In this document: positions 24,251-50,604 of the stretch, piece by piece | How the letters are laid out: the number at the start of each line of letters is the position of its first letter | How positions within the stretch are numbered: the first letter of the stretch is position 1 | Assembly (NCBI GenBank): GCA_964642015.1 | Contig: CAZXLF010000007.1 | Coordinates: forward strand, 11,964-75,963 | Direction of reading: 5' to 3' | Source of the DNA: an uncultured Planctomycetia bacterium | GTDB taxonomy: Bacteria > Omnitrophota > Gorgyraeia > 2-02-FULL-51-18 | DNA: 64,000 nucleotides | Translations under genes and position numbers: made by a program | Notes under the pieces: generated by a model | Told to the model about the DNA's origin: nothing | Seen by the model: the letters and a program-made list of their open reading frames with translations, nothing else | Databases searched by the model: none

Positions 24251-24706
24251 TTAGATGTGAAAAGCGTATTGGGAGGCCGGTTTACTCTTCTTGAATCGGC
24301 GCGCCTCATCGATCAGATCTTTTAAAGTGGCGCCGGCCAGACCTGTTTCAATAGAAGATTTGAATTTGTCCCAAAAGATAAAATTAGCGATCGCTACTTC
24401 GTCGGTTTCGGGCGTTAATTTTACTTTATTGTTTAATTCCAAGGTATTTTTATTGCTCAAAACATAAAAAAGAGAGTCTAGACGGATCTCGGAAGGTTTT
24501 TTCGTCAAAACATATCCGCCCTGAGGTCCGCGCACGCTTTTGACAAACCCTTTTTTCTTAAGCGCATTGAGAATCTGCTCAAGATACGCGACGGAAATGC
24601 CTTCTTTCTTCGCTATTTGAGTCACGGAAAGTGAACCCTCACCGTACCGGCTAGCTAGCACCAGGACGGCCTTTAAGCCATAAAGTGTACGGGTAGAAAA
24701 TTTCAT
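24251..24706 (-). CDS. Rrf2-family transcriptional regulator (CymR/IscR-like, no obvious Cys-cluster ligands)
   Basis: The N-terminal HTH (TRTLYGLKAVLVLASRYGEGSLSVTQIAKKEGISVAYLEQILNALKKKGFVKSVRGPQGGYVL) is typical Rrf2. It is the last gene of the sulfur cluster. Confidence 0.85.
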   Translation of the reverse strand: MKFSTRTLYGLKAVLVLASRYGEGSLSVTQIAKKEGISVAYLEQILNALKKKGFVKSVRGPQGGYVLTKKPSEIRLDSLFYVLSNKNTLELNNKVKLTPETDEVAIANFIFWDKFKSSIETGLAGATLKDLIDEARRFKKSKPASQYAFHI

Positions 24707-24961: not shown

Positions 24962-25252
24962 TTAATGGGACAAGATCTTTGCTTTATCGGATTTTATCTT
25001 TTCTTCTACGGAATAAGCCGAACCTGAAAAATGTTTGCTGAACTTATCGAAGATCCGCGAGATCAATAACACAAAAGCATGCACAAAACATGCGGTTCCC
25101 AATCCTGCGGCAATGCCAAAATGCTCAAAAGGATAAGGATATTTTTGTTTTTGAAAAAGTATGTCAGTATAACGGTAAACGAGATAAAAAGCGGCTGCAG
25201 GCGCAATGATCGACAAAATAACAAAAAAGATCGAGGGAAGTTTTTTCCTCAA
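24962..25252 (-). CDS. small two-TM membrane protein, hypothetical
   Basis: 96 aa with two hydrophobic helices ([19 protein letters not shown]; [19 protein letters not shown]). It overlaps the upstream gene's stop by 4 nt. Confidence 0.45.
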
Positions 25253-25767
25253 GAAGCACTGTCTCCGGTAACTGGCTCCACCTTAATGCCGAGTGACTCC
25301 AGAAATTTGATGCCTTTGACAAGATTTTCTTCGGTGCCTTCGAGCTCAAGCATCATTTCACCAACGGTTTCCGTGACACGCGCTTTGCGGATATTAGGCA
25401 TGATGTCGTATTTTTTCGCCATCGTGAATACCGCGGGCTTTTTGATCTGGTCAGGAGGAAAAACAAGCGTCACTCTTTTTTTAGACAGCTTTGCTCCACC
25501 GGCAATCGCGGGAATGATGGAAATATCATCCCCATCCTTTAAAGAGGTATCCTGACCCTGCAAAAAACGAATGTCTTCCTCATTCACGTAAATATTCACG
25601 AACCGCCGCAGTTTTCCATCGCCGTCGCAGAGACGTTCTTTGATACCGGGATGTTTTTTTTCAAGATCCGAAAGCATTTGATTAATGTTGGATGCATCGC
25701 AGCTGACTTCGCTCTGGTTGTTCGTCAATTTCTGCAAAGGGGTCGGGATCCTTACTTTGATTGCCAT
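25249..25767 (-). CDS. MoaD/CysO-like ubiquitin-fold sulfur-carrier domain fused to a C-terminal NIL domain
   Basis: Residues 1-90 match MoaD ([14 protein letters not shown] ... [12 protein letters not shown]...[16 protein letters not shown], with Gly-Gly at 89-90). Residues ~95-172 match a NIL domain ([46 protein letters not shown]). A strong SD (AAGGAGG) lies 4 nt upstream of the ATG. Confidence 0.75.
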
Positions 25768-25915
25768 ACTTCCTCCTTAAATGAGCGCAGGATTTACGCT
25801 ACAAAAGCGTAATTCTACATCGCGAATTCCCGCCACAGAACACTGGCGGGTCCGCGGGTCCGCCGCGCTTTTTGGCGGATATCCTGAGAAGATTCCTCAG
25901 AATCGACGAAGGATC
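25768..25915 (-). promoter_or_regulatory. structured GC-rich leader (candidate attenuator or riboswitch-like element) upstream of the MoaD-NIL gene
   Basis: The minus-strand RNA contains hairpins AUUCUGAG/CUCAGGAU and UUACGCU/AGCGUAA. A central GC-rich segment (CCGCC-N9-GGCGG-ACCCGCGGAC-CCGCC-N9-GGCGGG) has mutually exclusive pairings. It stands out in a 45%-GC genome. Confidence 0.4.
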
Positions 25916-27178
25916 TCACTTTGAGACCCAAACATCTTCTTTTATCTTTGTTTCATTTCTCAGTGAACGTTCGAACGACTCTAAACTCGGCTTGATGCGG
26001 TAAGGTTTTCCGATATGATCGGAAACCGCTTCTTGTGTTTTTAATCCATTCCCGGTGATGCAAATAACACATGATTCATTTTTCGGAATAACACCGTTCT
26101 CGATCAACTTTTTAGTCGACGCAACCGTGACACCGCCGGCTGTTTCGGTAAAAATGCCTTCCGTACTTGCCAAAAGTTTTATTCCGTCGATGATCTCTTG
26201 ATCCGTCACTGTTTCTCCGTTGCCACCGCTTTCTTTCATCGCGTCAAGTGCATAAGGGCCATCAGCGGGATTACCGATCGCCAAAGATTTTGCGATCGTC
26301 TTGGGCTTCACGGGTTTTATAATTTCGCTTTTCTGTCTCAAAGCCGTTACGACCGGTGAACAGCCTTCGGCTTGCGCCGCATAAATTTTCGAATTTAATG
26401 AATCGATCAATCCCAATTTTTTAAATTCATTGAACGCTTTCCAAATTTTTACCAAAAGCGAACCGCTCGCAACGGGCACGACAACGTGTTGAGGGACACG
26501 CCAACCCAATTGTTCCATGATCTCGTATCCATAGGTCTTTGAACCTTCGGCATAATAAGGGCGAATATTGATATTTACGAAAGCCCAGCGATAACGTGCT
26601 GCGATCTCGGCACAGAGTCGGTTGACGTCATCATAATTGCCTTCGACGGCAACAAGATTGGGCGCATACGTCAATGATCCGATCACTTTTCCAAGCTCAA
26701 GATCCGCCGGAATAAAAATAAAGCGGTTAAGCCCAGCCCATGCGGCTTGCGCACTTACTGAACCGGCAAGATTTCCCGTGGAAGCGCAAGCGACAGTTTT
26801 AAAACCAAGTTCTTTTGCTTTCGTCAGAGCGACCGCAACCACGCGGTCTTTAAAGGAAAGTGTAGGATGACATACTGAATCGTCTTTAATGTAAAGTTCT
26901 TTCATTCCCAACTCTCGCGCGAGATTGTCTGCACGGAATAAAGGAGTAAAGCCCGCATGAAAACCTACAGTCGGATGCTTGTCGATCGGAAGCAGATCGC
27001 GGTAGCGCCAAATACTTTTCGGACCTTTTTCGATCTTTTCTCGGGAGATAACTTCTTTGATCTTGTTATAGTCGTAATCAACTTCAAGTGAACCGAAGCA
27101 AAATTCGCAGACATAGATCGACTCGATCGGATAAAGCCGATGGCATTCTCTGCATTTTAAACCTTTGACGTAACCCAT
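25916..27178 (-). CDS. threonine-synthase-family PLP enzyme with an N-terminal zinc ribbon (ThrC / cysteate synthase / MetM-like)
   Basis: The N-terminus (C-R-E-C ... C-E-F-C) forms a zinc ribbon. The PLP lysine motif is HPTLSFKDR. The Gly-rich loop is TGNLAGS. Length 420 aa. Confidence 0.8.
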   Translation of the reverse strand: MGYVKGLKCRECHRLYPIESIYVCEFCFGSLEVDYDYNKIKEVISREKIEKGPKSIWRYRDLLPIDKHPTVGFHAGFTPLFRADNLARELGMKELYIKDDSVCHPTLSFKDRVVAVALTKAKELGFKTVACASTGNLAGSVSAQAAWAGLNRFIFIPADLELGKVIGSLTYAPNLVAVEGNYDDVNRLCAEIAARYRWAFVNINIRPYYAEGSKTYGYEIMEQLGWRVPQHVVVPVASGSLLVKIWKAFNEFKKLGLIDSLNSKIYAAQAEGCSPVVTALRQKSEIIKPVKPKTIAKSLAIGNPADGPYALDAMKESGGNGETVTDQEIIDGIKLLASTEGIFTETAGGVTVASTKKLIENGVIPKNESCVICITGNGLKTQEAVSDHIGKPYRIKPSLESFERSLRNETKIKEDVWVSK

Positions 27179-27252: not shown

Positions 27253-28275
27253 TCACTTCTTCTCAGTTGTTTCAACTTTCGTCTCCGAAATCTCTTTCAA
27301 GAACCGCGTATCATAAAGGAACTTCAAATCCGGATCTTTTTTAAGAAAACCGGCATGGTAAGCGGCGAGCGCCTGCGCTCTCACAGTGGACGGAAGAGGA
27401 TCCGTGGTAAATTCCACGCGATTCCATGCCCGGTCCAGCAGTTCTTGAGACAGAGGCTTACCTGTTTCTTTCTCGATCTCCTTTTTAAAAACGACTTTGG
27501 CTTCTTCAGGATTCGAACGGATCCAATTCGTGATCTTTACGTGCGTCTCGAGGAAACGCTTCACCAGGGCGGGATGTTCTTCAAGAAACTTCGCACGAAC
27601 AAGTACGACCGTCGTCGCATACCGGCCATCTTTCCAAAGAGAGGCTTCATCCAAAAATACTTTTCCTCCCGCCGTTTGTTCCAAGATAGAAACCCACGGC
27701 TCGACGGTCCACGAAGCGTCGATTTCTTTTTTAAGGAACAACGTCACATGATCTGCATTTGAAACAGGGATCACCTGAACATCGCCACCCACTTCTTTTA
27801 ACTTCAACCCTTGTTTGTCAAGCCACGAACGAAGCGAAACGTCCTGTGTATTTCCAAGCTGCGGAGAAGCTACTTTCCTTCCGTGAAAATCTTCGGGCTT
27901 TGTAATACCGCTATCCGAGCGGATCACCAGCGCCGCACCGCCTGAACTTGAACCCGACACAATGCGCACCGCTTCGCCTTCCGATTTCACATAGGCATTG
28001 ATCGCCGGACTAGGACCAATATAGGCGATATCCAGCTTTCCTGCGAATAATGCCTCAATGGCCGAAGGACCGGCGTTGAATATTTTCCAGTCTACTTCCG
28101 CGTTCGGCGACAAATTATCTTCAAACCAGTGATTCGCGTGACCGATCACTCCTTGAGCGTGCGTGATGTTTGAAAAATGTCCAACGCGGACTTTTGTCTG
28201 CGTTGGATCCGCCGAAGCTTTAGTGGCGGATCCAAAAAGGCTGATTGCAACCAACAGTAAGATTAACTGCTTCAT
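27253..28275 (-). CDS. ABC transporter substrate-binding protein, NMT1/SsuA/TauA family (sulfonate/nitrate/taurine type)
   Basis: Signal peptide MKQLILLLVAISLFGSATKASA (start placed at this internal Met, 28275) is followed by an SsuA-like fold (KVRVGHFSNITHAQ...LDIAYIGPSPAINAYVK). Confidence 0.8.
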   Translation of the reverse strand: MKQLILLLVAISLFGSATKASADPTQTKVRVGHFSNITHAQGVIGHANHWFEDNLSPNAEVDWKIFNAGPSAIEALFAGKLDIAYIGPSPAINAYVKSEGEAVRIVSGSSSGGAALVIRSDSGITKPEDFHGRKVASPQLGNTQDVSLRSWLDKQGLKLKEVGGDVQVIPVSNADHVTLFLKKEIDASWTVEPWVSILEQTAGGKVFLDEASLWKDGRYATTVVLVRAKFLEEHPALVKRFLETHVKITNWIRSNPEEAKVVFKKEIEKETGKPLSQELLDRAWNRVEFTTDPLPSTVRAQALAAYHAGFLKKDPDLKFLYDTRFLKEISETKVETTEKK

Positions 28276-28298
28276 TTTCTTTCCAACTCCAAAATTTT

Positions 28299-29129
28299 TT
28301 AACTTTTTTTTCCGGATAGCCAAAACCACCCTGCCCATGTTGATTCTGATCTATCTAATCCCCAAATTCTTCTGACACGCTTTTCCAATAATCCAAAAAC
28401 CAACATGTCCATGAATACTCCGATGGATATGATCACGATCATCACCGCGATCACCTGACTCATGTCGTTTAATTCTCTGCCCATGTTCAAGAGATGCCCG
28501 AGTCCGAGACTCACAAAAAGGATTTCGCCGGCCATCAGCGAGCGCCACGCGAATGACCAACCCTGTTTTAAACCCGACAGGATAGAAGGCAGCGCCGCCG
28601 GCAAAACCACGTCGGTGAACATACACATGCCTGAGGCACCCATGTTGCGGCCTGCGCGCAGATAAATAGGTTGAATATTTTTTACACCAGAATCCGTCGC
28701 AATAGTCACCGATAAAAGTGAACCCATCACGACCACGAACGTGATCGCCGATTCATTGAGACCAAACCAAAGTATCGCAAGCGGCAGCCAGCAAATACTG
28801 GGCAGCGTTTGAAGTCCGGAGAAAAAACCACCCAGCGTTTCATCTAAAAGTTTTGACTTTCCGATAACCAAGCCCAAAGCAATGCCGAAAAAAACGGAGA
28901 TCGAATAACCGATCAGAATTCTTTTCAAACTCACACCGATCGCGATGAAAAACGTTTTATTTTTAAAACCGTCCGCCAGCGTCTCTAAAACCTGTCCGGG
29001 CGAAGGGAAAAGATACTGCGGCCAAAGTTTGAGACTGAATAAAAATTGCCACAACATTAAAAGAAGTAGATAAAAAACAATCTGTCTCAAAATTTTAAAG
29101 AATAAGTTGTTAAAATTCAGCTCAAACAT
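28299..29129 (-). CDS. ABC transporter permease (NitT/TauT family, SsuC-like)
   Basis: 276 aa with 6 TM helices and an EAA-like loop region (LKQGWSFAWRSLMAGEI). Confidence 0.8.
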   Translation of the reverse strand: MFELNFNNLFFKILRQIVFYLLLLMLWQFLFSLKLWPQYLFPSPGQVLETLADGFKNKTFFIAIGVSLKRILIGYSISVFFGIALGLVIGKSKLLDETLGGFFSGLQTLPSICWLPLAILWFGLNESAITFVVVMGSLLSVTIATDSGVKNIQPIYLRAGRNMGASGMCMFTDVVLPAALPSILSGLKQGWSFAWRSLMAGEILFVSLGLGHLLNMGRELNDMSQVIAVMIVIISIGVFMDMLVFGLLEKRVRRIWGLDRSESTWAGWFWLSGKKS

Positions 29130-29139
29130 TGATTTGATA

Positions 29140-30069
29140 TCAAACGTTGAAATAAGGTTCCATACTCAAGTAGCGCTCTCCCGAATCCGGGAAAACGGTC
29201 ACTACCGTTTTATTGGATCCTAATGCTTTGGCAATTTTGAGCGCGCCGATACAAGCCGCACCGCATGAAATTCCGGCGAATATTCCTTCTTCACGCGACA
29301 AGCGCTTGGCTATTTGATAAGCTTCATGGTCATCAACCGTGATGATCTCATCAATAATGTCACGATTCAGCACTTCTGGAATAAATCCTGCGCCGATACC
29401 CTGGATCATGTGAGGACCAGGTCTGCCTCCGGATAGTACGTTCGAACTTTTAGGTTCGACTGCGATGATCTTTATTTTTGGATTGTGTTTCTTCAATACT
29501 TCACCCACACCGGTGATCGTCCCGCCTGTTCCGACTCCGGCGACGAACGCATCGAGTTCTCCGTCCGTATCCTTTAATATTTCTTTGGCTGTTGTTTTAC
29601 GGTGCATTGCCGGATTGTCGGGATTCATGAACTGCTGCGGCATAAACGCGTCTTTTCTTGTGGCAATGATCTCGCGCGCTTTTTCGACAGCGCCTATCAT
29701 ACCTTCTTTGGCAGAGGTCAGAACAATTTCCGCGCCGAAACTTTGGAGAATTTGAATGCGCTCCTGGCTCATTGATTCGGGCATCGTCAGGATCACTTTG
29801 TATCCTTTGACGGCGCCTACGATCGCAAGACCGATACCCGTGTTTCCACTTGTAGGCTCGACGATCACCGATCCGGACTTCAAGATCCCTTTTTTCTCGG
29901 CTTGCTCGATCATATTGAGCGCAATCCTGTCTTTTACACTTCCGCCCGGATTGAACATCTCGAGTTTTGCATAAACAGTCGCCGAATTTTTTTCAACCAC
30001 CTTTGCAAGCTTTACCATAGGTGTGTTGCCGATCAAATCCAAAATACTAGCGCTTATCTTATTATTCAT
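29140..30069 (-). CDS. cysK: cysteine synthase (O-acetylserine or O-phosphoserine sulfhydrylase, CysK/CysM family)
   Basis: The PLP lysine motif is NPGGSVKDRIALNMI. Also present are TSGNTGIGLA and GVGTGGTITG. Length 309 aa. Confidence 0.9.
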   Translation of the reverse strand: MNNKISASILDLIGNTPMVKLAKVVEKNSATVYAKLEMFNPGGSVKDRIALNMIEQAEKKGILKSGSVIVEPTSGNTGIGLAIVGAVKGYKVILTMPESMSQERIQILQSFGAEIVLTSAKEGMIGAVEKAREIIATRKDAFMPQQFMNPDNPAMHRKTTAKEILKDTDGELDAFVAGVGTGGTITGVGEVLKKHNPKIKIIAVEPKSSNVLSGGRPGPHMIQGIGAGFIPEVLNRDIIDEIITVDDHEAYQIAKRLSREEGIFAGISCGAACIGALKIAKALGSNKTVVTVFPDSGERYLSMEPYFNV

Positions 30070-30281
30070 GAATGCAGGTCTCCTCCGCCCATATAAAAAA
30101 TGAATTCCACTTTGTCTCCTTCTTTGATCTGTGTCGTTTCATAATCAAGCTTCTGTAAAATATTCTCATTGATCTCTACGGTCACAAGCTCCGGTCTCAT
30201 GCGCCACTTCGTCAAAAGGTCCGTGACGGACATTCCTGTTTTGATCTCGCTGGGTTTTCCATTCAACGTAATATTGATCAT
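30066..30281 (-). CDS. ThiS/CysO-like sulfur-carrier protein with a 4-residue extension (DLHS) after the Gly-Gly motif
   Basis: MINITLNGKPSEIKTGMSVTDLL...EINENILQKLDYETTQIKEGDKVEFIFYMGGG-DLHS is ThiS-like throughout. The stop overlaps the cysK start by 4 nt. An upstream in-frame ATG at 30326 is less likely because it would overlap the JAMM gene. Confidence 0.75.
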   Translation of the reverse strand: MINITLNGKPSEIKTGMSVTDLLTKWRMRPELVTVEINENILQKLDYETTQIKEGDKVEFIFYMGGGDLHS

Positions 30282-30288
30282 CTCAGTG

Positions 30289-30675
30289 CTAGGCAATTTG
30301 GATCTCCTCTTCAGTGACTTTTTCATCCTGGATCTTAAAAGAACGCAGCACAGGTTTTTTCATGTCGGAAAGTGACACGATCAGGTAACTGACTTCCGGA
30401 TAGAACGCAAGCCGTATGTCTTTTTGCGAAGGATACGCTTCACTGGCTACGTGCGAATGAAAAATACCGGACATCTCGATACCGAGTTTTCTCATTTCCT
30501 TAAATACAACAAGCTGTTCCTTCGGGTCCATAAAATAGCTGATGCTCGCGTTATCAAGATTGGTCATTGGAAAAAATTTGTCAGGCCCCGCCAAAATCCC
30601 GCACGCCTCATTCGGAAAGCCTTTTTTCGCGTGACCGATCATCTGCTCGTAAATATCTTTGGAAATTTTAATCAT
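30289..30675 (-). CDS. JAMM/MPN+ zinc metalloprotease (Mec+/CysLO/HcyD/QbsD-like)
   Basis: The catalytic Glu is in PNEACGILAG. The JAMM motif is HSHVASEAYPSQKD (HxHx7Sx2D). About 130 aa. Confidence 0.85.
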   Translation of the reverse strand: MIKISKDIYEQMIGHAKKGFPNEACGILAGPDKFFPMTNLDNASISYFMDPKEQLVVFKEMRKLGIEMSGIFHSHVASEAYPSQKDIRLAFYPEVSYLIVSLSDMKKPVLRSFKIQDEKVTEEEIQIA

Positions 30676-30676
30676 G

Positions 30677-31516
30677 TCAAATATTACTTCCGACATTTCT
30701 ATCGACCGGCGTCAAAACCCCGGCCTTTGAAACTTGGTAATCCGTATCCAGTTCCTGACGCGCTACTTTTTCAATTTCATCTTTCAATGAGCTCATGATC
30801 TTTGTCTGGATCGTTAAAAGATGCGGATCCTGTTCTCTTCTAGGCCTTGGGAGCTGAATCGCATATTCTTTTTTGATCGTTCCGGGCCGGGCCGTAATTT
30901 CAAACACACGGTCCGATAAAAATGTTGCTTCACGCACATTATGCGTCACAAAAAGCACCGTGCATTTTGTCTTCTGCCAGATATCCTGCAATTCCTCCTG
31001 AAGCATCTGGCGTGTCTGTGCGTCCAATGCCGCAAAAGGCTCATCCATCAAAAGGATCTTCGGATTCATTACAAGCGCCCGGGCGATAGCAGCACGCTGT
31101 TTCATGCCTCCGGAAAGCTGATGCGGGTGCGCGTTCACAAACCGCGCTAAGTGCACGGCTTTGATCGCTTCAAGCGCGCGCACTCTTCTTTCCTGCTCCG
31201 GAACACCGGCGACCTTCAAGCCGAATTCCACATTATTCAGCACAGTCAGCCACGGAAAAAGGGCGGCTTCCTGAAAAACCACAAGACGGTCCTTTGAAGG
31301 GCCTTCAACTATCTTGTTATCAACGAACACCTGCCCTGAATCCGGAAATTCAAGCCCGGCGATCAAAGAAATGAGCGTGGATTTTCCGCATCCTGATGGG
31401 CCGATCACACAAATGAACTCACCTTCTTCGATCGTGAAATTAATGTCGTGAAGCGCCTGCACACGCTGGTCTTTTTGCTTAAAACTTTTATGAACGCGTT
31501 TGAAAACAACTCTCAT
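30677..31516 (-). CDS. ABC transporter ATP-binding protein (SsuB/TauB-like)
   Basis: Walker A is GPSGCGKST, the signature motif is LSGGMKQR, and Walker B is ILLMDEP. Confidence 0.88.
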   Translation of the reverse strand: MRVVFKRVHKSFKQKDQRVQALHDINFTIEEGEFICVIGPSGCGKSTLISLIAGLEFPDSGQVFVDNKIVEGPSKDRLVVFQEAALFPWLTVLNNVEFGLKVAGVPEQERRVRALEAIKAVHLARFVNAHPHQLSGGMKQRAAIARALVMNPKILLMDEPFAALDAQTRQMLQEELQDIWQKTKCTVLFVTHNVREATFLSDRVFEITARPGTIKKEYAIQLPRPRREQDPHLLTIQTKIMSSLKDEIEKVARQELDTDYQVSKAGVLTPVDRNVGSNI

Positions 31517-31565: not shown

Positions 31566-32306
31566 TTATTTACCTTCTGACTTCTGTCCTCTGATTTCTG
31601 ACTTCTGAATATGTAAACCGCATTCTTTGTGTTCCGGATTTTCCCACCACCAACGGCCGGCACGAATGTCTTCTCCAGGTTTAATGGCTCTCGTGCAAGG
31701 CGCGCAACCGATCGATGGATAACCCAGATCGTGCAGTTTGTTATACGGAACATTGTTCTTCCGGATATAATTCCAAACATCCTCATTCGTCCAAGCCGCC
31801 AGCGGATTTATCTTAAAAATATTTCCATGCGCATTGTCGACCTCTATTTTCTGAACGTCTGCTCTTGTCACCGATTGATCGCGGCGAAGGCCCGTAATCC
31901 AGGCATTTAGATCTTTGAGAGCCCGATTTAACGGCTCGACTTTACGTATTCCGCAGCATTCTTTTCTATTGTCGATTGATTCTCTGAACGAATAAAAACC
32001 CTTCGCGCGTTCCAATGCTTCGACTTTTTCAAAATTAGGAAAGTAGGATTCGATATTAATCTTATACCTAGAACGAATTCGATCCATCAATTCATATGTT
32101 TCTTCATTGAGCCGTCCTGTATCCAAAGTAAAAATTTTTACTTTCGGCTCAAGTTTCGAAACCATGTCAATCAATACTACATCCTCTGCGCCAAAGGATG
32201 AAGCCAACGCAATCTTCGGATGAAAATCCGTAAGAGCCCATTGGAGCAGCTCCTCGGGAGATTTTTTTTCAACGTCTGAATTGATCTTTTTGATGTCAAA
32301 TGGCAC
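31566..32306 (-). CDS. cysH: adenylylsulfate (APS) / PAPS reductase, thioredoxin-dependent CysH family with Fe-S cysteine pairs
   Basis: A Cys pair (ECCGIRKV) and CAPC suggest a [4Fe-4S] APS-reductase type. The C-terminal ECGLH motif is present. A 14-aa low-complexity tail ([14 protein letters not shown]) is encoded by short tandem DNA repeats. Confidence 0.85.
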
Positions 32307-33585
32307 TGAAATATTCCACGCTTTTCAAAATAATCCCTCCCCCGCGGACATCATGGTCGCTAACCAAAACAAAACGTCCCGTTTCGGGGATCAGATCATA
32401 GGTATCGAAAGCAATCGGCTTTTTGGTTGAGATAATGATCTCCGCTACTTCGTTTTTGGCAACTTCATGTGCGTTCTTGGAAATTTCCTCGAGCGTCGAA
32501 GAATTGATCACTCTGATGATCGATTCGATCACGCATTCCATTTCCTGTGTGGCGATCTTTAGAAGATATTTGCCGCCTTTTTCGAGGTGTTTGTTACCCA
32601 TCCAGAAAATATTGGCCTGAAAACGGTCAGACACGATCGGTTTCTGCTTGGGAATGCAGCCGATATCGCCGCGTTCCACGAAAATCTGTTCTTCCATCGT
32701 AAAACCCGTTGATTCACCCGCATAAACAGCTGTAGGTGTTTTGTCATCCGCAGGATGCCATTTCTCGATCGTTTTTATCTTCGTAGACTTTCCGGACGGC
32801 AAAAAAAGGATCTCATCACCCGCAGAAATCGTTCCTGCTTCGACACGGCCTGCGATGATACGCCGTTTGTCGAATTTGTAAACGTCCTGCACCGGGAAAC
32901 GAAAATACGCTTTTGAACGGTCATCATTGGAAGAGAAATTATCAAGGATCTCCAAAATACTCTCGCCTTTATACCACGGCATTTTATCGCTGCGTTTGGT
33001 CACATTTTCCCCGTGATAAGCGGAGATAGGGATAAAAGTCCTAGGTTTAATGTTGATCGTCGCAAGATACTTGCTGTAAATCTCTCTGGTCGTATTGAAA
33101 ACTTCTTCGGAATAATTCACAAGGTCCATTTTGTTGACGACGATCGCGATCTGCTTGATCCCCAAAAGCGATAAAATATACGCGTGGCGTTTGGTTTGTT
33201 CCTGAATGCCTTCTTCCGCATCGATCATCAAGAACGCCACATCGGCATTCGAAGCGCCGGAGATCATATTTTTCAAAAACTCCTTATGACCCGGAGCATC
33301 GATTACCACATAATTTCTTTTCTTGGTCTTAAAAAACATCTGCGACACGTCGATCGTAATGCCTTGATCGCGCTCTTCCTCAAGCGCATCCAATAAAAAC
33401 GCAAACTCAAATCCTTTTCCTTGGTCTTCGCAAACTTTTTGCACATGGCTGATCTTAGATTCGGGAATGAACCCTGTTTCGTGCAATAAACGCCCGACAA
33501 GCGTCGACTTTCCGTGATCGACGTGACCGACCATGACGAATTTCAAAGTTTCGGTGGATGTAGGTGATTCCAAAGTCGTTTGCAT
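32296..33585 (-). CDS. cysN: sulfate adenylyltransferase subunit 1 (GTPase)
   Basis: G1 is [11 protein letters not shown]3 is DAPGH and G4 is NKMD. Length 429 aa. It lies downstream of cysD. Confidence 0.9.
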
Positions 33586-33586
33586 G

Positions 33587-34396
33587 TTACATGTATCCCT
33601 TCGTTCTCAATTTCTGCATAGCATATGTGTCTTCCTGGTCCTGTGCGCGGCCGGCGCGTTCGGAAGTCTTTCCCTGCTTGAGCTCAGCGATGATTTCATC
33701 AACATTGCTTGCCGGCGAATCGATCGGAAATGTGCACGGTGCACAGCCAAGACTCCGATAGCGCTTGCCGTTCTTTGAAAAATAAAGGCTCACAACGGGA
33801 ATATTCTCGCGTTTGATGTATTCCCACACATTTACTTCGGTCCAATGAAGCAAAGGATGGATGCGAATATGCGTATTTTCATCAAAATTCGTTTTAAATT
33901 GATCCCAAAGTTCAGGCGGCTGGTCTTTAAAGTCCCATTCAAAATTTTTATCGCGCGGAGAAAAATAGCGCTCTTTGGCGCGCGTGCTTTCTTCGTCGCG
34001 GCGAATCCCTAGGATCAATCCTTTATAATCATACTGCTCCATGATCTGCTGAAGACCGATGGTTTTGAGTGCCGTGCAGCAATTGATGCGGCCTTTCGTG
34101 TAATTCATTCCTTCTTCCAGCGCTTTTTTATTCTGACCGACGATCAGATTGAGATTCCATTCTTTCGCATAGCGGTCGCGGAATTCGATCATCTCAGGAA
34201 TTTTGTAGCTGGTATCGATATGCACCAGCGGAATAGGGACATGACCCAAAAAAGCTTTTCTGGCCAGCCAAAGAAGCACATTTGAGTCTTTGCCGATCGA
34301 CCAGAGCATAGCCAGCTTTTTAAATTTTTTGTACGCCTCGCGCAAAATGAATATTGATTGATTCTCTAATTTGTCTAAGTGATCCACTTGGTCCAT
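33587..34396 (-). CDS. cysD: sulfate adenylyltransferase subunit 2
   Basis: The PAPS-reductase-like fold motif is [19 protein letters not shown]. Length 269 aa. It is separated from cysN by 1 nt. Confidence 0.9.
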
Positions 34397-35417: not shown

Positions 35418-36317
35418 TTAATCTGTGCAATTAACGGGTTGATCGACATAGTGAGGCCACGCGTCGACCCAGCCTGAATTATGACTTGCATTAGGCACTT
35501 CGACGATTTTTGCACATAGTGGATGGTTCATTTTCTGTAAAAATTGATGAGCAATAAATGATGGGATCACTTTATCTTCTTTTCCTATAAAGTGCTCTTG
35601 CGGAATGGATGATACTTTATAAGCAACATCGATCGGATTCAAAGATCCATGCAAATTACTGACGCCATGATAATGATTCACGGATTCATGGTCCAAATTG
35701 CCAGCGATCGTTCTCAAAGAAACAACATCATTTCTCCTTGCCGCAAGCAATACAGCGACCGCGCCGCCGCCCGAATAGCCGATCAAATGGATCGATTTGG
35801 CCTGCGCTTTTTCTTTAAGCAGATCAATCGCCTGATCCATAGAGGAGATCACCTCCTCAGAGAACCGTTTGGATGACCAATAATCAGAATTGCACCGCGA
35901 ATCTTTTTCGGACATACCATATTGGCAAGGTCTTGATAAATATGCCACATTGTCGGAACCGTCTTTCGAAGCCAGAGTCAATACCAAAGGGTTCCGAGGC
36001 GTTGGGTCATCGGATAAATTATTTCTTGAAAGCCAAGCCGAACCATCCCCTTCAATATATATCTTCAAAGATGTTCTAGGTTTATTGATCTTGTCATAGG
36101 ACAGGAGATGAAAGTGAGAAGTGGGTAAAATTGATTTCTCAAAACCTACGCTTTGGGCAATACGATCAGCTTTATTCGTGGAATCTACTGAAGAGGAAAC
36201 AGTCGCACAACCTACATGAGCCAAGACAAATACGAAAAGCAAAGACCAAAAAAGGAATGACCGCCATAAAAACCGCAGTGTCTGTTCGGTAAAGATCATT
36301 AGAAGCTTTGCGATCAA
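35418..36317 (-). CDS. alpha/beta-hydrolase lipoprotein
   Basis: The lipobox is LAHVGC, the nucleophile elbow is GYSGGG, and a downstream His lies in PNASHNSGW. Confidence 0.65.
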   Translation of the reverse strand: MIAKLLMIFTEQTLRFLWRSFLFWSLLFVFVLAHVGCATVSSSVDSTNKADRIAQSVGFEKSILPTSHFHLLSYDKINKPRTSLKIYIEGDGSAWLSRNNLSDDPTPRNPLVLTLASKDGSDNVAYLSRPCQYGMSEKDSRCNSDYWSSKRFSEEVISSMDQAIDLLKEKAQAKSIHLIGYSGGGAVAVLLAARRNDVVSLRTIAGNLDHESVNHYHGVSNLHGSLNPIDVAYKVSSIPQEHFIGKEDKVIPSFIAHQFLQKMNHPLCAKIVEVPNASHNSGWVDAWPHYVDQPVNCTD

Positions 36318-39300
36318 AAGTTATAATTCAAAGCTACATTACCTGAATGACTGACATAACCTGATTTAAGGTCCAAATTATAGACGCCTTCTAACGAGAC
36401 GTTATTTTTCGATAAAAAAGTAACACCAGTTCCTAAATCAAAGCTGTTCTGAGCAGGCCTGAAACCGCTCGTCTTAAACGATGCGCCGCCGCCGGTAAAT
36501 GTCGAAGTAACCTCTTCTTTATCTCCGATAAAGTCATAAAGCCACTCGCCGTGCACTTCAGGAATATAAGTGCCATTGTGATCCGTAATAGGATAAGCGA
36601 TCTTCATGCCAAGCCCAGATTGTAAGAAATCAAAACCTTCGGCATTCACGTGAAGGTCGAGATCTCCCGCGCCCGTTTCGGTATAACTATCAAGATTGAG
36701 ATGAATGTATTCCAGCGACACAAGCGGAGTGACCCTGAAACCGCGATCTTCTATGTCGTAACGTACGCTCATTTTCCAGTCACATTCCTGACCATCGTAG
36801 CCGGCATCAGCTGTACGATCAAGGCCTGAAAAAGCGATCCTTCGAGAATTATCATAGTTATTCCAAGCAAAAGTAAAAGAAGTATCCATCGACCAACGAT
36901 CTACTCCATAAATTGCATAGAACGTGGCTAAATAATTATGGATATCCGCATCAGCTTCCACATTCTTTGAATTCATAACAGTCCTCGCATATCCTCCGGC
37001 AAGACCAAGCCTAACTTGATCAGAAACAAGGCCATCCGCTCCCCAAACCGTTCCCCAAAGACCTGAATCGTAACCATTAATACCCTGGTGGTCATGCTGA
37101 TCCGAAAAATTGGTGAACCCTTTAAACCAAATCCCACTATCCTTGAACACAGTCTTCATAGATTCATCGCCGGTAGAAATGCCTGTCCTGCGAGAATTTG
37201 CTTCTCCGTATTGACTGGATACTCCGGTATCGCGAATCTGGTCAAAATGCATCCCCAGAGCACGCGTGTAATTAGTGACCGCGGAAAAGCTTCCTTGGGT
37301 GACACCGCCATTCACGTTTGGGATCAACTGCTGAAGAGCTTTGTCATAATCAGAAGGGGATAATGTGAACAGCAAATTCTCGACAGTACCCATATCTCCT
37401 GTTGCCGTGGAAGAAATTGAATCCAACACAGCGCCTACAGCAGCGCGATTGCTGGTGCTCGCAATACTCGAGGAAGGAATAAGCGTCGGGGTGATCATAA
37501 TATCACCCGCCGTATTAGCAGCGGTGAATGTATAACGATTGCTGTTAGAAGTGACCGTGATGGACTGCCCATTGCTGCCGCCCGCCGAACCGTCCAATAT
37601 CTTTAACGCTGTCCCTGAAGCCAACGCACCTGTGACAGTAGCATTGACCGTGGTACCGGACGAAATAGATGCATTCCCTGTTGATGCGATATTACCAAAA
37701 ACCGAAGAGCTGTTAAGTGTGGTTTTGATCACATTGGTTGCAGATGTCGTAACTACACCTCCACCTGCTCCATTGACCGTCAAGGTATTAGCTTGCAAAT
37801 TCAGCACTCCTGTGCCTGCAAGCGTCAAATTGCCTTCATCCGTTCCGTTTCCACCTACGGTCAAAGTGCCTCCGCTATTCACTGTGGTAGTAGTCGCAAA
37901 AATATTCGCGTTATTAATGACTTCCCCACCGTTCACATTGACCGCCGTGAGCCTGTTGGCAACACCCGTAGCGCCTATGGCACTCGATACAGTAGAAGCA
38001 CCTAGAAAAGTCAAAGTGCCTTGGTTTACGCCACCTGTAGATACGGAGCCGCTGATGCTTTTACCATCTGAAATATTCACCGTTCCGGCCGCGCCAAAAG
38101 CCAACGTGGTGGCAGTGGTGTTTCCCTGTAAGTTGACCGTATTGGCTCCGGCCACATTGACCGTGGTAGCTGCGATATCTCCCGTGAACGTCGTAGTGGC
38201 ATTTTCACCGGCATTAATCGTACCTAAAGAAGATCCAGACGAGATAGACCCTGTAACCGTACCACCCTTTACAGTCAAAGTACCTTGACCTGCGGTGGTC
38301 GCTGAAATAGTGGGAGAAGTAAGGTTTGATCCATTGGCCATGACCACTGTGCCGTTACCCCCGAAATTCAATGTGCCTGCCACACCTGTGTCCACGTTGC
38401 CATTAAATGTCAACGTGCCCGTACCAGTCGTTGTCGCGCCATTACTGCCAGCATTGATCGCCTTCGCGAACACATTAGCGGTGAATATGTCCGCTGCGCC
38501 TGTCGCACCCGCGTTTAAAACCGAGATCCTGTGCGTGTTATCTGAGCCGACCTGACCTGTAACCGTTTGGCTTCCCCCTACAAGGGTCAAAGTTCCGTCA
38601 TTGTCAGCAGAAGCGGTTACTGCGGCAGTCAAATTTTTTCCACTGCCCACCTTTACTATGGAACTAGCGTTGAAAAGTATCAATGAATTGGCGCTCACAT
38701 TCCCGTTGAATGTCGTCGTGTTATCGACCGCATATATCGCGGACAACTTGTGGGTCGCTCCGATATCACTGTCAAAAATCGCATTGGCATAATAACCCGG
38801 CTTAAGTACTCCTTCTCCGTCAGAAGCACCGTTGATCGTCCCGGTAACAGTCTGAATGGAAGATCCTGACAAGATCAAATAGGAGACCCCAACGTTGTCA
38901 TCTAATACAAAACCGCCTGTGCTCGTAACCGTTGAGCCGTTGGCATACAACGCAGAAGCAGCCCCAGCACCGCCTGAATTCGCCGTAATGGTCGTGAGCC
39001 CGGCGATCTGCAAGTTGTCGCCCACACTCATCGTAATAGACTTGGTATTCGTGGCCTCATTGTTCGTAAGATTCAAATTCCCACCGACCGTGAGAGCATG
39101 GGTCACAGCGACTGTAGTATTCAAATTATCATTATTCGCATTTTGTACCGTAAAGTTCGAGCCGACATTGCCTGAATCAATATACACCGTAAGATCGCCC
39201 GTTCCGGCGACGCCATTAGGATGAACATTTACCAAACCAGTACTGGCCGTATCTGAAAGAGCGCCGATCACGAATGTATTTTTACCGTTACCATCATCAG

Positions 39301-39523
39301 CTATGTTATCGTTCGTGACCGTCAGTGTATGTCCATTAATATCAATGGACTGGCCGCTAAACGCATCTGAGGCATTTCCGACATCAGTGCCGAGATGCGT
39401 GCCGGCCGAAGCCCATTGGCCATTACCTGTCAAATTCTGATTTGCTGCAAAACCCGTAGAAATCCACAAGGAAGGAATAAATATTGGGACGAACACAAGC
39501 GCGAATATTGTCTTTTTAATCAT
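36314..39523 (-). CDS. type Va autotransporter (Gly/Thr/Asn-rich beta-helical passenger plus C-terminal 12-strand beta-barrel translocator)
   Basis: A signal peptide runs from the internal Met (MIKKTIFALVFVPIFIPSLWISTGFA). The passenger (~750 aa) is degenerate and repetitive. The C-terminal ~280 aa alternate hydrophobic residues and end in the aromatic terminal motif ...ALNYNF. Confidence 0.85.
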   Translation of the reverse strand: MIKKTIFALVFVPIFIPSLWISTGFAANQNLTGNGQWASAGTHLGTDVGNASDAFSGQSIDINGHTLTVTNDNIADDGNGKNTFVIGALSDTASTGLVNVHPNGVAGTGDLTVYIDSGNVGSNFTVQNANNDNLNTTVAVTHALTVGGNLNLTNNEATNTKSITMSVGDNLQIAGLTTITANSGGAGAASALYANGSTVTSTGGFVLDDNVGVSYLILSGSSIQTVTGTINGASDGEGVLKPGYYANAIFDSDIGATHKLSAIYAVDNTTTFNGNVSANSLILFNASSIVKVGSGKNLTAAVTASADNDGTLTLVGGSQTVTGQVGSDNTHRISVLNAGATGAADIFTANVFAKAINAGSNGATTTGTGTLTFNGNVDTGVAGTLNFGGNGTVVMANGSNLTSPTISATTAGQGTLTVKGGTVTGSISSGSSLGTINAGENATTTFTGDIAATTVNVAGANTVNLQGNTTATTLAFGAAGTVNISDGKSISGSVSTGGVNQGTLTFLGASTVSSAIGATGVANRLTAVNVNGGEVINNANIFATTTTVNSGGTLTVGGNGTDEGNLTLAGTGVLNLQANTLTVNGAGGGVVTTSATNVIKTTLNSSSVFGNIASTGNASISSGTTVNATVTGALASGTALKILDGSAGGSNGQSITVTSNSNRYTFTAANTAGDIMITPTLIPSSSIASTSNRAAVGAVLDSISSTATGDMGTVENLLFTLSPSDYDKALQQLIPNVNGGVTQGSFSAVTNYTRALGMHFDQIRDTGVSSQYGEANSRRTGISTGDESMKTVFKDSGIWFKGFTNFSDQHDHQGINGYDSGLWGTVWGADGLVSDQVRLGLAGGYARTVMNSKNVEADADIHNYLATFYAIYGVDRWSMDTSFTFAWNNYDNSRRIAFSGLDRTADAGYDGQECDWKMSVRYDIEDRGFRVTPLVSLEYIHLNLDSYTETGAGDLDLHVNAEGFDFLQSGLGMKIAYPITDHNGTYIPEVHGEWLYDFIGDKEEVTSTFTGGGASFKTSGFRPAQNSFDLGTGVTFLSKNNVSLEGVYNLDLKSGYVSHSGNVALNYNF

Positions 39524-39651
39524 TATCCGTCTCGTTTCATATACCGATAATTTTAGATCGGGTAAAAGACACAAATAATGAAACTACACTTCCACAAATT
39601 TTTAGTTTATGAAAGTAATGAACGTGTTTTTATAGATTTACAGTATTATAT

Positions 39652-39700: not shown

Positions 39701-40222
39701 TCAGGTTGAGGAGCTCATTTTGAGCGCTACGGTGTTGATACAATAGCGTTTTCCGGTCGGAGGAGGGCCGTCATCAAATACATGCCCAAGGTGCGCCCCA
39801 CATCGGGAGCACAGAACTTCCGTGCGATGCATGCCAAAATCATTGTCATCTTCCAGCTTCACGTTCAGCGGTGAAATCGGTTCCCAAAAACTCGGCCAGC
39901 CGGTGCCGGATTCAAATTTATTGCCGTAGGCGAAAAGGTCCGTTCCGCAGCCGACACATTGATAAACGCCTTTTCCGGATTTCGGGATCGCGCATTGTTT
40001 GCTGAAAGGCCGTTCGGTGCCTTTTTGCCGTGTCACTTCGTATTGCTCACGTGTCAGGATTTTTTTCCATTCGGCGTCTGACTTCACCACCGGATCAACC
40101 TTCTCAACTTTTCCGGTCGACGCATTATAGATCTCGATCTTTTGTTGTGTCTTCATGTCGGCTCCTAAAATAAAAGGGCTTAACGCGAAAATGAATAATA
40201 TAAGTTTGAGATTTATTTTCAT
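39701..40222 (-). CDS. msrB: peptide-methionine (R)-S-oxide reductase with signal peptide
   Basis: The zinc-binding and catalytic cysteines are evident (YQCVGCGTDLF...GWPSF...CSRCGAHLGHVFDDGP). Confidence 0.9.
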   Translation of the reverse strand: MKINLKLILFIFALSPFILGADMKTQQKIEIYNASTGKVEKVDPVVKSDAEWKKILTREQYEVTRQKGTERPFSKQCAIPKSGKGVYQCVGCGTDLFAYGNKFESGTGWPSFWEPISPLNVKLEDDNDFGMHRTEVLCSRCGAHLGHVFDDGPPPTGKRYCINTVALKMSSST

Positions 40223-48817: not shown

Positions 48818-49318
48818 ATGCGGCTGAAAAACTCCATAACCCTTTCTGTGTTAATATATAAAGAAATGACAGATACCAAACGCCGCGATACGATCATTAC
48901 GATATTCGTCATTCTCTGGATCGGTCTCTTTTATTACGAATCCGTGCGCTATAATTATTTGAATCCTATTTGTCACCGAGAACTTCCGAAATGTAAATTC
49001 CTTTTTCCTCCAGCAGGCTGGATCATGTTCTTTCAGGTTGGCCAAACAGAAGTGCATTGCGAAGTTTATGGGCAAAAAGATGGAAAACTCGAGTTGATCG
49101 ATCCTCATAAAATTTTCCCGAATCATTGGCTAGGTTATGACAACATCCGGCGTAACGTATTAATAACAGCTCTTGATCCTGATTATTCCGCATCATTTTG
49201 TGAATACCTGAAGCGAAAATTTCCGGAATACGAGACATTTGCAGTCACTGAAGCGATCTATCCTTCGGTCACACAGTATAGGGACAAAAAAATCTTAAAG
49301 CTGGCTTACAAATGTTAG
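48818..49318 (+). CDS. hypothetical protein translationally coupled to the HTTM-DCC gene
   Basis: 166-aa ORF with one TM segment (IITIFVILWIGLFYY) and conserved-looking Cys/His/Trp residues. Its stop overlaps the downstream start by 7 nt. Confidence 0.5.
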   Translation: MRLKNSITLSVLIYKEMTDTKRRDTIITIFVILWIGLFYYESVRYNYLNPICHRELPKCKFLFPPAGWIMFFQVGQTEVHCEVYGQKDGKLELIDPHKIFPNHWLGYDNIRRNVLITALDPDYSASFCEYLKRKFPEYETFAVTEAIYPSVTQYRDKKILKLAYKC

Positions 49319-50604
49319 AAAAAATAAAGATCCTTTGGAATAAAGCTTTTCTGGAAGAGCGTCCGTCGATCAGTCTTTCATTATTCAGACCGTTCGTGGC
49401 TTTCACGGTGGGTGCGCATGTTATTCCCACGCTTCTGCATATGCAGGACAATTATCTTGCCGGAAGTTTCCGAGAGAAAAACCCCTCTTTTTTTACAATC
49501 GGCGCGCTCGTCCTTGTCGATAAAAGTCCTGATTGGCTAGTATATTTCTTCACGGTCCTTTTCTATGTGTCTCTTTCTTTCTTTTTCGTGGGATTTTTTT
49601 CTCAAATTTCGTGTATCCTTCTGATGCTGTGCCTTTACTTTTTTTATGCGCTGAATTCGCTTCACATCGGCACATTATCATTCGATATCTTGCTCGTGAC
49701 CATGTTTCTCATGTGCATTACCGATTATCCCGGAGATCATTTTTCAGTCGATGCATTGCTAAGCGCAGGTTCTTTAACCTACAAAAAGAAAAAGCCTTTT
49801 TTTGTACAGCGGCTTTTGCAACTCCAAATTGCATCTACTTATTTTTTCACAGCGCTCTGTAAATTCACCGCCAGAGGCAATTGGCTCCTAGATAACCCAA
49901 TCTACTATCTTTTGAACTCACCGCCCGACAGCGTCGTGAAACACTTCCCTCTGCGCGAATTTTTCGCGGGGCAGCCGACCTTATGCTATTTCATTGGAAT
50001 CTCGATAATCTTGTCTGAAATCTCGATGCCGTTCCTGCTTTTCGCTAAACGTACGAGAATATTTGGAATCATCATGGGATTCTTTTTTCACATCATGCTG
50101 ATCATCACGCTCCATGTGCCGACGATATTCTTTTTCCTTTTTCCTCCGCAGCTTCTTTTATTCATCGAACCTGAAAAGATCGTTGCTTTCATTGATAAAA
50201 AAAGAGAGCGGAACATATCGGAAAAGCAAGATACCGTGATCTTTGATGGTCACTGCCAATTCTGCGTGGGCAGTGTTCAAAAATTACAGTCGCTGGATCT
50301 TTTCGGAAAAACAAAGCTATTAGATTACCAGACTTATGAAGATATTTCTTCCTTTGATAATCGGCTCACGAAGGAAAAATGCCACAGTCAAATGCAGGTT
50401 GTGACGGCCGACGGCAGGCTTTTCGGAGGGTTTTATGCGTTCAGATATTTATCGCTAAGGCTTGTGCTTCTTTGGATACTAGTGCCTTTGTTCTATTCTC
50501 CCGGCTTCCAGTGGATCGGGAACACGGCTTATGATTTTATCGCCAAAAACCGTTATCTTTTTCACCGAAAAGGATCCTGCAATAACAACCACTGCTTCAG
50601 ATAA
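49312..50604 (+). CDS. HTTM (vitamin K-dependent gamma-carboxylase-like) domain fused to a DCC-family thiol-disulfide oxidoreductase domain (DUF393)
   Basis: The N-terminal ~300 aa form a polytopic HTTM-like domain. The C-terminal region TVIFDGHCQFCVGSVQKL carries the FDGxCxxC motif of DCC proteins. Confidence 0.75.
   Translation: MLEKIKILWNKAFLEERPSISLSLFRPFVAFTVGAHVIPTLLHMQDNYLAGSFREKNPSFFTIGALVLVDKSPDWLVYFFTVLFYVSLSFFFVGFFSQISCILLMLCLYFFYALNSLHIGTLSFDILLVTMFLMCITDYPGDHFSVDALLSAGSLTYKKKKPFFVQRLLQLQIASTYFFTALCKFTARGNWLLDNPIYYLLNSPPDSVVKHFPLREFFAGQPTLCYFIGISIILSEISMPFLLFAKRTRIFGIIMGFFFHIMLIITLHVPTIFFFLFPPQLLLFIEPEKIVAFIDKKRERNISEKQDTVIFDGHCQFCVGSVQKLQSLDLFGKTKLLDYQTYEDISSFDNRLTKEKCHSQMQVVTADGRLFGGFYAFRYLSLRLVLLWILVPLFYSPGFQWIGNTAYDFIAKNRYLFHRKGSCNNNHCFR

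Follow-up and report, generated by a model that had tools for sequence, protein, structure and literature searches.

In Streptomyces albulus, the ThrC-homologous enzyme MetM makes homocysteine from O-phosphohomoserine and the thiocarboxylate of the carrier protein MetO (Hasebe et al. 2024, as summarised in 10.1101/2024.10.14.618325 and PMC12172450), with Mec and MoeZ as helpers. A riboswitch for S-adenosylmethionine (SAM) lies upstream of the metM gene of this organism (PMC12172450), and the GapMind 2026 preprint (10.1101/2024.10.14.618325) accepts MetM as a homocysteine synthase. A second relevant precedent is the class 4e operons of Iyer et al. 2006, in which a ThiS/MoaD carrier and a JAB peptidase are found with phosphoadenylyl sulfate/adenylyl sulfate (PAPS/APS) reductase, ATP sulfurylase and a transporter; the operons described there include O-acetylhomoserine sulfhydrylase, with no mention of ThrC or NIL. 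Here we describe a gene of the MetM kind in a 64,000-nucleotide stretch of contig CAZXLF010000007.1 (assembly GCA_964642015.1) from an uncultured Omnitrophota-like bacterium. We refer to the whole of this stretch as the window, and the gene occupies positions 25916-27178 on its minus strand. Names carried by 85-90% identical proteins point to Candidatus Omnitrophota or a close relative. The kind of enzyme (2024) and the type of operon (Iyer et al. 2006) are known, and what appears to be new here is a variant in which the carrier is fused to a NIL domain as a putative pro-protein.

We consider it probable that the product of this gene is a MetM orthologue, which would form homocysteine from O-phosphohomoserine and the thiocarboxylate of a carrier cut from the putative carrier-NIL pro-protein encoded just downstream. 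The support for a MetM/MetO function is comparative and comes by way of orthology: the enzyme belongs to a clade of its own, a relative in Nonomuraea has the hallmarks of the S. albulus system, and a carrier gene follows the enzyme gene in nearly all orthologous loci. An earlier reading of this DNA, made from the sequence alone and called the sequence-only reading below, had raised the same possibility, and these comparisons point the same way. Its statement that such a pathway has been described in actinobacteria is correct for S. albulus, going by the summaries of Hasebe et al. 2024.

The enzyme differs from canonical threonine synthases

The open reading frame (ORF) starts with ATG and encodes 420 aa, which Pfam PALP covers over the full length (E = 7e-66). 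Its SFKDR motif is at residues 108-112, where K110 aligns with K61, the lysine of Thermus thermophilus ThrC that binds pyridoxal phosphate (PLP), and the STGN motif is retained together with this lysine. The N-terminus has a ribbon of the form CxxC-x11-CxxC (C9-x2-C12-x11-C24-x2-C27), whose cysteines are conserved in 67-81 of 81 orthologues. The sequence-only reading had the position, the ThrC-family assignment, the lysine in SFKDR and the N-terminal Cys4 ribbon right. It had also used the zinc ribbon in its argument for MetM, and here only the presence of the ribbon stood, not its specificity. Ribbon-bearing proteins with canonical ThrC motifs exist (e.g. P0224 and P0245), so the ribbon is not diagnostic of MetM and we rejected it as a marker.

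All databases annotate the protein as threonine synthase. It might be an ordinary enzyme of that type, with its sulfur neighbours an accident of gene order, and there is evidence in favor of this: the NCBIfam thrC model TIGR00260 gives 305.8 bits against a cut-off of 167.1, solved ThrCs are the nearest solved structures (they lack the ribbon, and their alignment starts at about residue 53), the PLP lysine and STGN are kept, and the 64-kb window has no other thrC. However, riboswitch-linked orthologues (described below) also score above the TIGR00260 cut-off, at 270-354 bits, so this model cannot discriminate MetM-like proteins from ThrC. We found no NCBIfam model that separates the two. The window enzyme scores just below the cut-off of PRK08197 (299 bits vs 303).

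We found that six positions in the active-site region are fixed differently in the clade of the window enzyme (81/81 orthologues) and in canonical ThrCs (9/9). Giving the window residue first and the T. thermophilus ThrC residue in brackets, these are V113 (G64), L137 (T88), N204 (S155), R206 (N157), Y209 (R160) and S213 (Q164), and none of the six canonical residues is found in the window enzyme or in any other clade member (81/81). We take the canonical residues to have phosphate-binding or catalytic roles in ThrC, with T88, S155 and R160 presumably touching the phosphate of the substrate. In ThrC this phosphate would assist the final addition of water, a step that an enzyme replacing the gamma substituent would not need. 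In an alignment of 100 ThrC-like proteins, the window enzyme, the Nonomuraea gene and their nearest relatives share motifs not seen in canonical ThrCs, and in a neighbor-joining tree of 64 ThrC-like proteins the clade of the window enzyme has 87/100 bootstrap support and lies apart from the solved ThrCs.

Several ribbon-bearing ThrC-like proteins outside the MetM-like clade (P0214, P0221, P0249, P0255, P0263 and P0201, P0220, P0238, P0268) are fused to the LeuA allosteric domain (LeuA_dimer) or to a PadR-type helix-turn-helix domain. Long ThrC-like representatives were considered as possible enzyme-carrier fusions and rejected, being ThrC+LeuA_dimer or ThrC+PadR.

Most orthologous loci have a carrier gene and some a SAM riboswitch

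A scan with one genome per species gave at least 600 matching stretches, and all of our locus counts refer to the best 80 loci. Their enzymes are 58-86% identical to the window enzyme and come from at least 13 phyla, spread over Omnitrophota, Nitrospirota, Thermodesulfobacteriota, Verrucomicrobiota, Planctomycetota, Cyanobacteria, Chloroflexota, Nitrospinota, Methylomirabilota, Actinomycetota, Aquificota, Acidobacteriota, Elusimicrobia and Poribacteria. Linkage to a carrier could be tested wherever 600 nt or more of downstream sequence was available, which was the case for 76 loci, and we set a limit of 2.5 kb on the same strand. A CysO-like carrier gene lies downstream within this limit in 70 of the 76, usually no more than 160 nt away, and the end of the carrier is nearly invariant ([VI]SI[VI]PA[IV]AGG, usually with the stop codon directly after it). 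No carrier gene lies within 2.5 kb of the MetM-like genes of L025 (Aquificaceae), L019, L027, L060 and L065. The case of the Aquificaceae deserves attention, given that Aquifex is listed among the organisms without a known route to homocysteine (Price et al. 2018, PMC5764234).

We searched for SAM riboswitches with a covariance model made from five riboswitches. It detected a SAM-I riboswitch immediately before the enzyme gene of Nonomuraea and before that of 21 among the 80 loci, and the model matched nowhere else in 1.1 Mb. Rfam confirmed the riboswitch at every one of the 12 loci tested. The Nonomuraea locus, found by tblastn in the chromosome of Nonomuraea gerenzanensis, has a SAM riboswitch (RF00162, 68.7 bits), followed by a ThrC-like gene with the same ribbon and 51% identity to the window enzyme, followed by a 91-aa carrier ending in ...IIPAVAGG.

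Some of the closest relatives outside Omnitrophota (68-69% identical) are in Thermodesulfovibrio and other Nitrospirota (L005-L007; L005:1-6032), where the gene order is enzyme, carrier, NIL, canonical thrC, a phosphoglycerate-mutase-like gene and aspartokinase. The mutase-like gene is HomK-like, as assigned by Pfam domains only; HomK is the name given to a phosphoglycerate-mutase-like family that forms O-phosphohomoserine (GapMind 2026 preprint, 10.1101/2024.10.14.618325). Because a canonical thrC stands beside the orthologue, the clade co-exists with true thrC and is tied to the supply of O-phosphohomoserine, and this cluster unites the threonine and homocysteine branches that share this intermediate.

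Together with the six replaced positions (G64, T88, S155 and R160 among them) and the separate clade, the riboswitches on orthologues, the carrier linkage and the thrC beside the orthologues of L005-L007 make an ordinary threonine synthase highly improbable. The sequence-only reading had doubted that this was the housekeeping thrC, and these comparisons support its doubt. The phylogeny it proposed places the enzyme outside bona fide ThrCs, and the neighborhood with carrier proteins on which it relied is conserved.

Another ThrC derivative with an N-terminal ribbon is cysteate synthase, and the operon in the window would yield sulfite, its co-substrate. However, the window enzyme scores only 82.5 bits with TIGR03844, the cysteate synthase model, whose cut-off is 324.9, and we rejected this assignment on that score. 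The homoserine branch is also indicated by the SAM riboswitches of orthologues and by the homK-like, aspartokinase and thrC genes linked to some of them, and we regard cysteate synthase, or any other ThrC-derived enzyme acting on O-phosphoserine, as extremely improbable.

The carrier is fused to a NIL domain

The gene following the enzyme gene encodes 172 aa. The sequence-only reading had placed a MoaD-like carrier directly downstream, and the adjacency is as it said, but this is not a plain carrier: a ThiS/MoaD fold is followed by a NIL domain at about residues 97-164. The carrier domain has the beta-grasp fold and the AGG motif, and its GG is internal, with NIL after it. Its nearest solved relatives are an Amycolatopsis CysO and the CysO of Mycobacterium tuberculosis (3DWG chain C), the latter at 49% identity and aligned to the last residue of CysO. 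The MetO-like carrier of Nonomuraea aligns with residues 1-91 without gaps, also at 49% identity. The stand-alone 78-aa NIL protein of L005 is 65% identical to the NIL part, in a match that begins four residues past the GG, and the joint of the fusion is exactly at the GG.

The AlphaFold model (mean pLDDT 84.5) has a beta-grasp domain and a beta-alpha-beta-beta-alpha-beta domain, both confident, and between them residues 88-91 have pLDDT below 50. With Foldseek, the N-terminal domain matches CysO, the C-terminal domain matches the MetN C2/NIL domains 3DHX, 2QSW and 3CED, and the full length (174 columns) matches the T. thermophilus 'MoaD related protein' 1V8C. Both domains are conserved in 24 Omnitrophota homologues, in which IIPAIAGG is invariant and the segment after it has 0 to about 20 extra residues and is highly variable in sequence as well. 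No plasmid record covered at least 80% of the fusion protein.

The carrier domain is 51.6% identical to the CysO paralogue of Nonomuraea, compared with the 49% for the MetO-like paralogue. It is thus similar to both alike, and its pairing with the enzyme rests on gene order. This resemblance to CysO, the fact that the closest solved relative is the CysO that partners CysM, and an internal GG that is blocked unless cleaved would all fit an enzyme that uses free sulfide to form homocysteine or some other thiol amino acid, with the carrier-NIL protein acting as an uncleaved regulator or as the CysO partner of CysK. Gene order elsewhere argues against this. In Nitrospiraceae loci the order ThiS-CysK-ThiF-enzyme-carrier-NIL-ThiF-JAMM, in effect two parallel carrier modules, pairs the CysO-like carrier with the MetM-like enzyme, and in cyanobacteria and Nonomuraea the carrier gene follows the MetM-like gene even with no cysK nearby. 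The AGG end and the variable linker are also those of a processed carrier, and we think the use of free sulfide very unlikely.

A NIL gene, separate or fused, is found in 35 of the 76 loci; it is mostly separate and abuts the carrier gene. It is fused to the carrier in L002, L003, L011, L016, L022, L059, L070 and L080 as well as in the window, and the loci of cyanobacteria and Nonomuraea have no NIL gene. Of the 35 NIL loci, 16 have a JAMM gene within 6 kb, compared with none of the 41 loci without NIL (Fisher p = 3.7e-7, kinship ignored). The JAMM gene is found in all seven complete fused loci and in 9 of 69 unfused ones (Fisher p = 5e-6, kinship ignored). The fused protein is the sole CysO-type carrier of each fused locus. 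ThiS carriers have one to four extra C-terminal residues, so that JAMM may be needed for them as well. We also considered whether NIL merely substitutes for riboswitch control and rejected this, because NIL and riboswitch occur together in 12 of the 35 NIL loci; the riboswitch loci include L022, L059 and L080, which have fused carriers. Our full-text searches, whose coverage did not extend to the original MetM paper, found no paper tying NIL to MetM/MetO or to ThiS/MoaD carriers.

There is also a second kind of carrier fusion. In L009 (9235-10302), a ThiF E1 domain is joined to a CysO-like carrier behind the GG of the latter (355 aa in all). A separate NIL gene follows, and this fusion would need cleavage too.

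Proposed route to homocysteine

In the route that we propose, the MetM-like enzyme would exchange the phosphate of O-phospho-L-homoserine for the sulfur of the C-terminal thiocarboxylate of the carrier (MetO), giving L-homocysteine. Residues 1-91 of the 172-aa protein would serve as this carrier. Since a thiocarboxylate can form only on a free Gly-Gly carboxylate, a cut after G91 would be required. The JAMM protein of the operon is the most likely cutter, and is a candidate for exposing the GG ends of both carriers of the operon, the NIL-fused one and the ThiS-type one. There is precedent for such a cut, as a JAMM protein cleaves a linear MoaD-MoaE fusion (Yang 2018, as cited in PMC11237513). 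Cutting would free a CysO-like carrier and an 80-residue NIL domain that corresponds to the NIL proteins found on their own in other phyla. Adenylation and sulfuration of the carrier would fall to a ThiF/MoeZ-type E1 with a gene outside the window, the operon's own CysDN/CysH branch would feed in sulfur, and the ThiS-CysK pair probably works in parallel to make cysteine by the same means.

Several points weigh against this proposal. The TIGR00260 model scores the window enzyme above its cut-off. Among all ORFs of the 64-kb window we found no E1 (ThiF/MoeB/MoeZ) and no sulfite reductase, and neither Rfam nor the purpose-built SAM model detected any RNA family or riboswitch in the window. In favor of the proposal, E1 enzymes are encoded in many of the orthologous clusters, as ThiF, as ThiF-rhodanese (MoeZ-like, in L015) or as the carrier-ThiF fusion. 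JAMM could serve only the ThiS-type carrier ending in DLHS. The link to the characterised MetM of S. albulus runs through proxies, namely Nonomuraea (51%) and Microcystis (57%).

Of the published evidence, the Microcystis study speaks most strongly against a pure MetM role. A Microcystis 'ThrC' whose gene adjoins a metO-like gene is 51.6% identical to MetM (PMC12172450), and the M. aeruginosa protein is reported to act in vitro as a threonine deaminase and, weakly, as a threonine synthase, while methionine did not rise in vivo (PMC12172450). The window enzyme, which shares 57% identity with the Microcystis orthologue L071, might likewise be a bifunctional or moonlighting threonine synthase and threonine deaminase in which homocysteine synthesis is absent or a side activity. 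However, the assays were done with Na2S and no thiocarboxylated carrier (PMC12172450). The SAM-riboswitch control and carrier linkage indicate that methionine synthesis is the selected function, and the acceptance of MetM as a homocysteine synthase by GapMind points the same way. Based on this, we believe that a bifunctional enzyme is quite unlikely here and that a MetM function remains the better account.

The role of NIL is more speculative. NIL has been described as a methionine-binding and regulating domain both in MetN, where it is also called C2 (PMC12068725), and in the archaeal homocysteine enzyme, as part of its NIL-ferredoxin subunit (PMC12068725; PMC5764234), and in our system its likeliest role would be that of a methionine-responsive accessory or regulatory subunit. 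A bolder version, which we put forward tentatively and regard as doubtful, is that NIL senses methionine (or homocysteine or SAM) as a third component of MetM/MetO in many phyla and gates the release or use of the carrier. If this were true, the fused NIL would make the carrier a ubiquitin-like pro-protein whose release by JAMM, or use by E1 and MetM, is gated by the end product, amounting to post-translational feedback on the flux of sulfur into methionine at the step of carrier maturation.

The sulfur operon and its surroundings

The enzyme gene is part of a single minus-strand sulfur cluster (Table 1), in which the order of transcription is cysD, cysN, cysH, ABC ATPase, JAMM, ThiS, cysK, permease, SsuA-like binding protein, ThrC-like gene, a 148-nt spacer, ThiS/MoaD+NIL, two small ORFs and the Rrf2/CymR-like regulator. 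The sequence-only reading had cysDN-cysH and cysK upstream of the enzyme gene, in agreement with this order. Jointly, cysD, cysN and cysH (31566-34396) account for sulfate activation and reduction to sulfite. As to methionine/SAM-regulon control, the window locus has the Rrf2/CymR-like regulator instead of a riboswitch, and an Rrf2-family regulator also adjoins the MetM-like genes of L002, L011, L016 and L070. No second thrC, and no thrB, hom or metE/H, was found among all ORFs of the 64-kb window.

Table 1. Genes and domains of the sulfur cluster, in order of transcription.
Feature	Position	Strand	Remarks
cysD	33587-34396	-	sulfate activation
cysN	32296-33585	-	sulfate activation
cysH/APS reductase	31566-32306	-	APS-reductase type
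ABC importer ATPase	30677-31516	-	apart from its permease; JAMM, ThiS and cysK genes in between
JAMM/MPN+ metallopeptidase (Mec-like)	30289-30696	-	Pfam Prok-JAB 7e-23; motif E...HSHVASEAYPSQKD
Second carrier, ThiS type	30066-30326	-	ends ...YMGGG-DLHS; 4-nt overlap with cysK start
CysK-type cysteine synthase	29140-30069	-	TIGR01139 454 bits
ABC permease	28299-29129	-	importer with SsuA-family binding protein
SsuA-family binding protein	27253-28338	-	ABC importer
MetM-like ThrC-family PLP enzyme	25916-27178	-	420 aa; Zn ribbon, PLP lysine K110, clade signature
Carrier domain, residues 1-91 of 172 aa	25495-25767	-	CysO/MetO-type beta-grasp; ends ...SIIPAIAGG; Pfam ThiS 1.1e-17
Linker AKLS (4 residues) + NIL, residues 92-172 + stop	25249-25494	-	Pfam NIL 3.4e-15
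Rrf2-family (CymR-like) regulator	24251-24706	-	3' end of cluster

The JAMM, ThiS (GGG-DLHS) and cysK genes (29140-30696) form a translationally coupled block that splits one Ssu/Sao-like ABC importer. This block looks like a thiocarboxylate-dependent cysteine module in the style of CysO/CysM, with a ThiS-type carrier and a CysK-type synthase, and the CysK is probably the partner of the ThiS-type carrier. Modules of ThiS, CysK and ThiF are recurrent in the Nitrospirota loci. The JAMM protein scores 70.8 bits with the desampylase model, which is below the cut-off. Inside the 148-nt spacer between enzyme and carrier genes, we noted a GC-rich hairpin, GGCGGACCCGCGGACCCGCC, at 25844-25867. On the minus strand it has an A-run before it and no T-run after it, and it is therefore not an obvious terminator; nor is it conserved, as the spacer is only 11 nt in L002, which is 86% identical.

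Genes for a 1086-aa autotransporter (36314-39574, minus strand) and a methionine-sulfoxide reductase, MsrB (SelR; 39701-40222, minus strand), lie immediately upstream of purU and of the sulfur operon. Further away, and unrelated to the MetM question, is a gene for a 430-aa protein (49312-50604, plus strand) with an HTTM domain and a DCC1-like thiol-disulfide oxidoreductase domain.

Implications

With carrier-linked orthologues in at least 13 phyla, the MetM/MetO route described in 2024 is not confined to actinobacteria. These orthologues are all labelled 'threonine synthase', and the six-residue signature combined with carrier linkage gives a simple rule for re-annotation, which closes gaps in the reconstructed methionine pathways of uncultured lineages such as Omnitrophota, Nitrospirota and Verrucomicrobiota. 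NIL was known from methionine transport and from homocysteine formation in archaea, and its recurrent presence here adds a third sulfur-amino-acid system to these two. The fused form offers a tractable case of the probable processing of a bacterial ubiquitin-like pro-protein by a JAMM peptidase.

Comparison with known systems

Like the MetM/MetO system of S. albulus, the system described here has a ThrC homologue whose gene precedes that of a CysO-like carrier, membership in the methionine regulon (here through the riboswitches of orthologues), a JAMM peptidase of the Mec type, and an enzyme misannotated as threonine synthase. It differs in that the carrier is fused after its GG to NIL, so that a whole domain would have to be removed, and in that the genes are embedded in an operon with cysDNH, cysK and an ABC importer, with no riboswitch or E1 nearby, in a candidate-phylum bacterium. 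The CysO-CysM-Mec+ system of M. tuberculosis (PDB 3DWG) likewise has a JAMM protein, a PLP enzyme with an O-phospho amino acid as substrate, thiocarboxylate chemistry and a carrier 49% identical to ours. However, CysO is unfused, whereas the PLP partner in the window is ThrC-derived, not CysM, the carrier is fused to NIL, and the proposed product is homocysteine, not cysteine.

The class 4e operons have the carrier, the JAB peptidase and the sulfate-reduction genes in common with the window, along with C-terminal extensions of the carrier that have to be trimmed. The HcyS-HcyD-HcyF-MetY pathway of Wolinella is reportedly a comparable carrier system. In both of these the enzyme is MetY, whereas in the window it is a ThrC-derived enzyme, predicted to act on O-phosphohomoserine, and the NIL domain is additional.

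For the NIL part, the closest comparisons are the NIL (C2) domain of the MetNI importer and the NIL-ferredoxin of the L-aspartate-semialdehyde sulfurtransferase (MA1822), which share its fold, its Pfam family and a tie to methionine or homocysteine; in those proteins NIL is joined to an ABC ATPase or to ferredoxin, and in the window it is joined to a ubiquitin-like sulfur carrier. The T. thermophilus protein 1V8C has the same two-domain layout, with an internal ...PPVAGG and then a second domain, and aligns over the full length, although its identity to the carrier-NIL protein is only 20%. Lastly, the MoaD-MoaE fusions are a precedent for the cutting of linear carrier fusions by JAMM, with the difference that MoaE takes part in catalysis, in contrast to NIL, a domain of the ligand-binding type.

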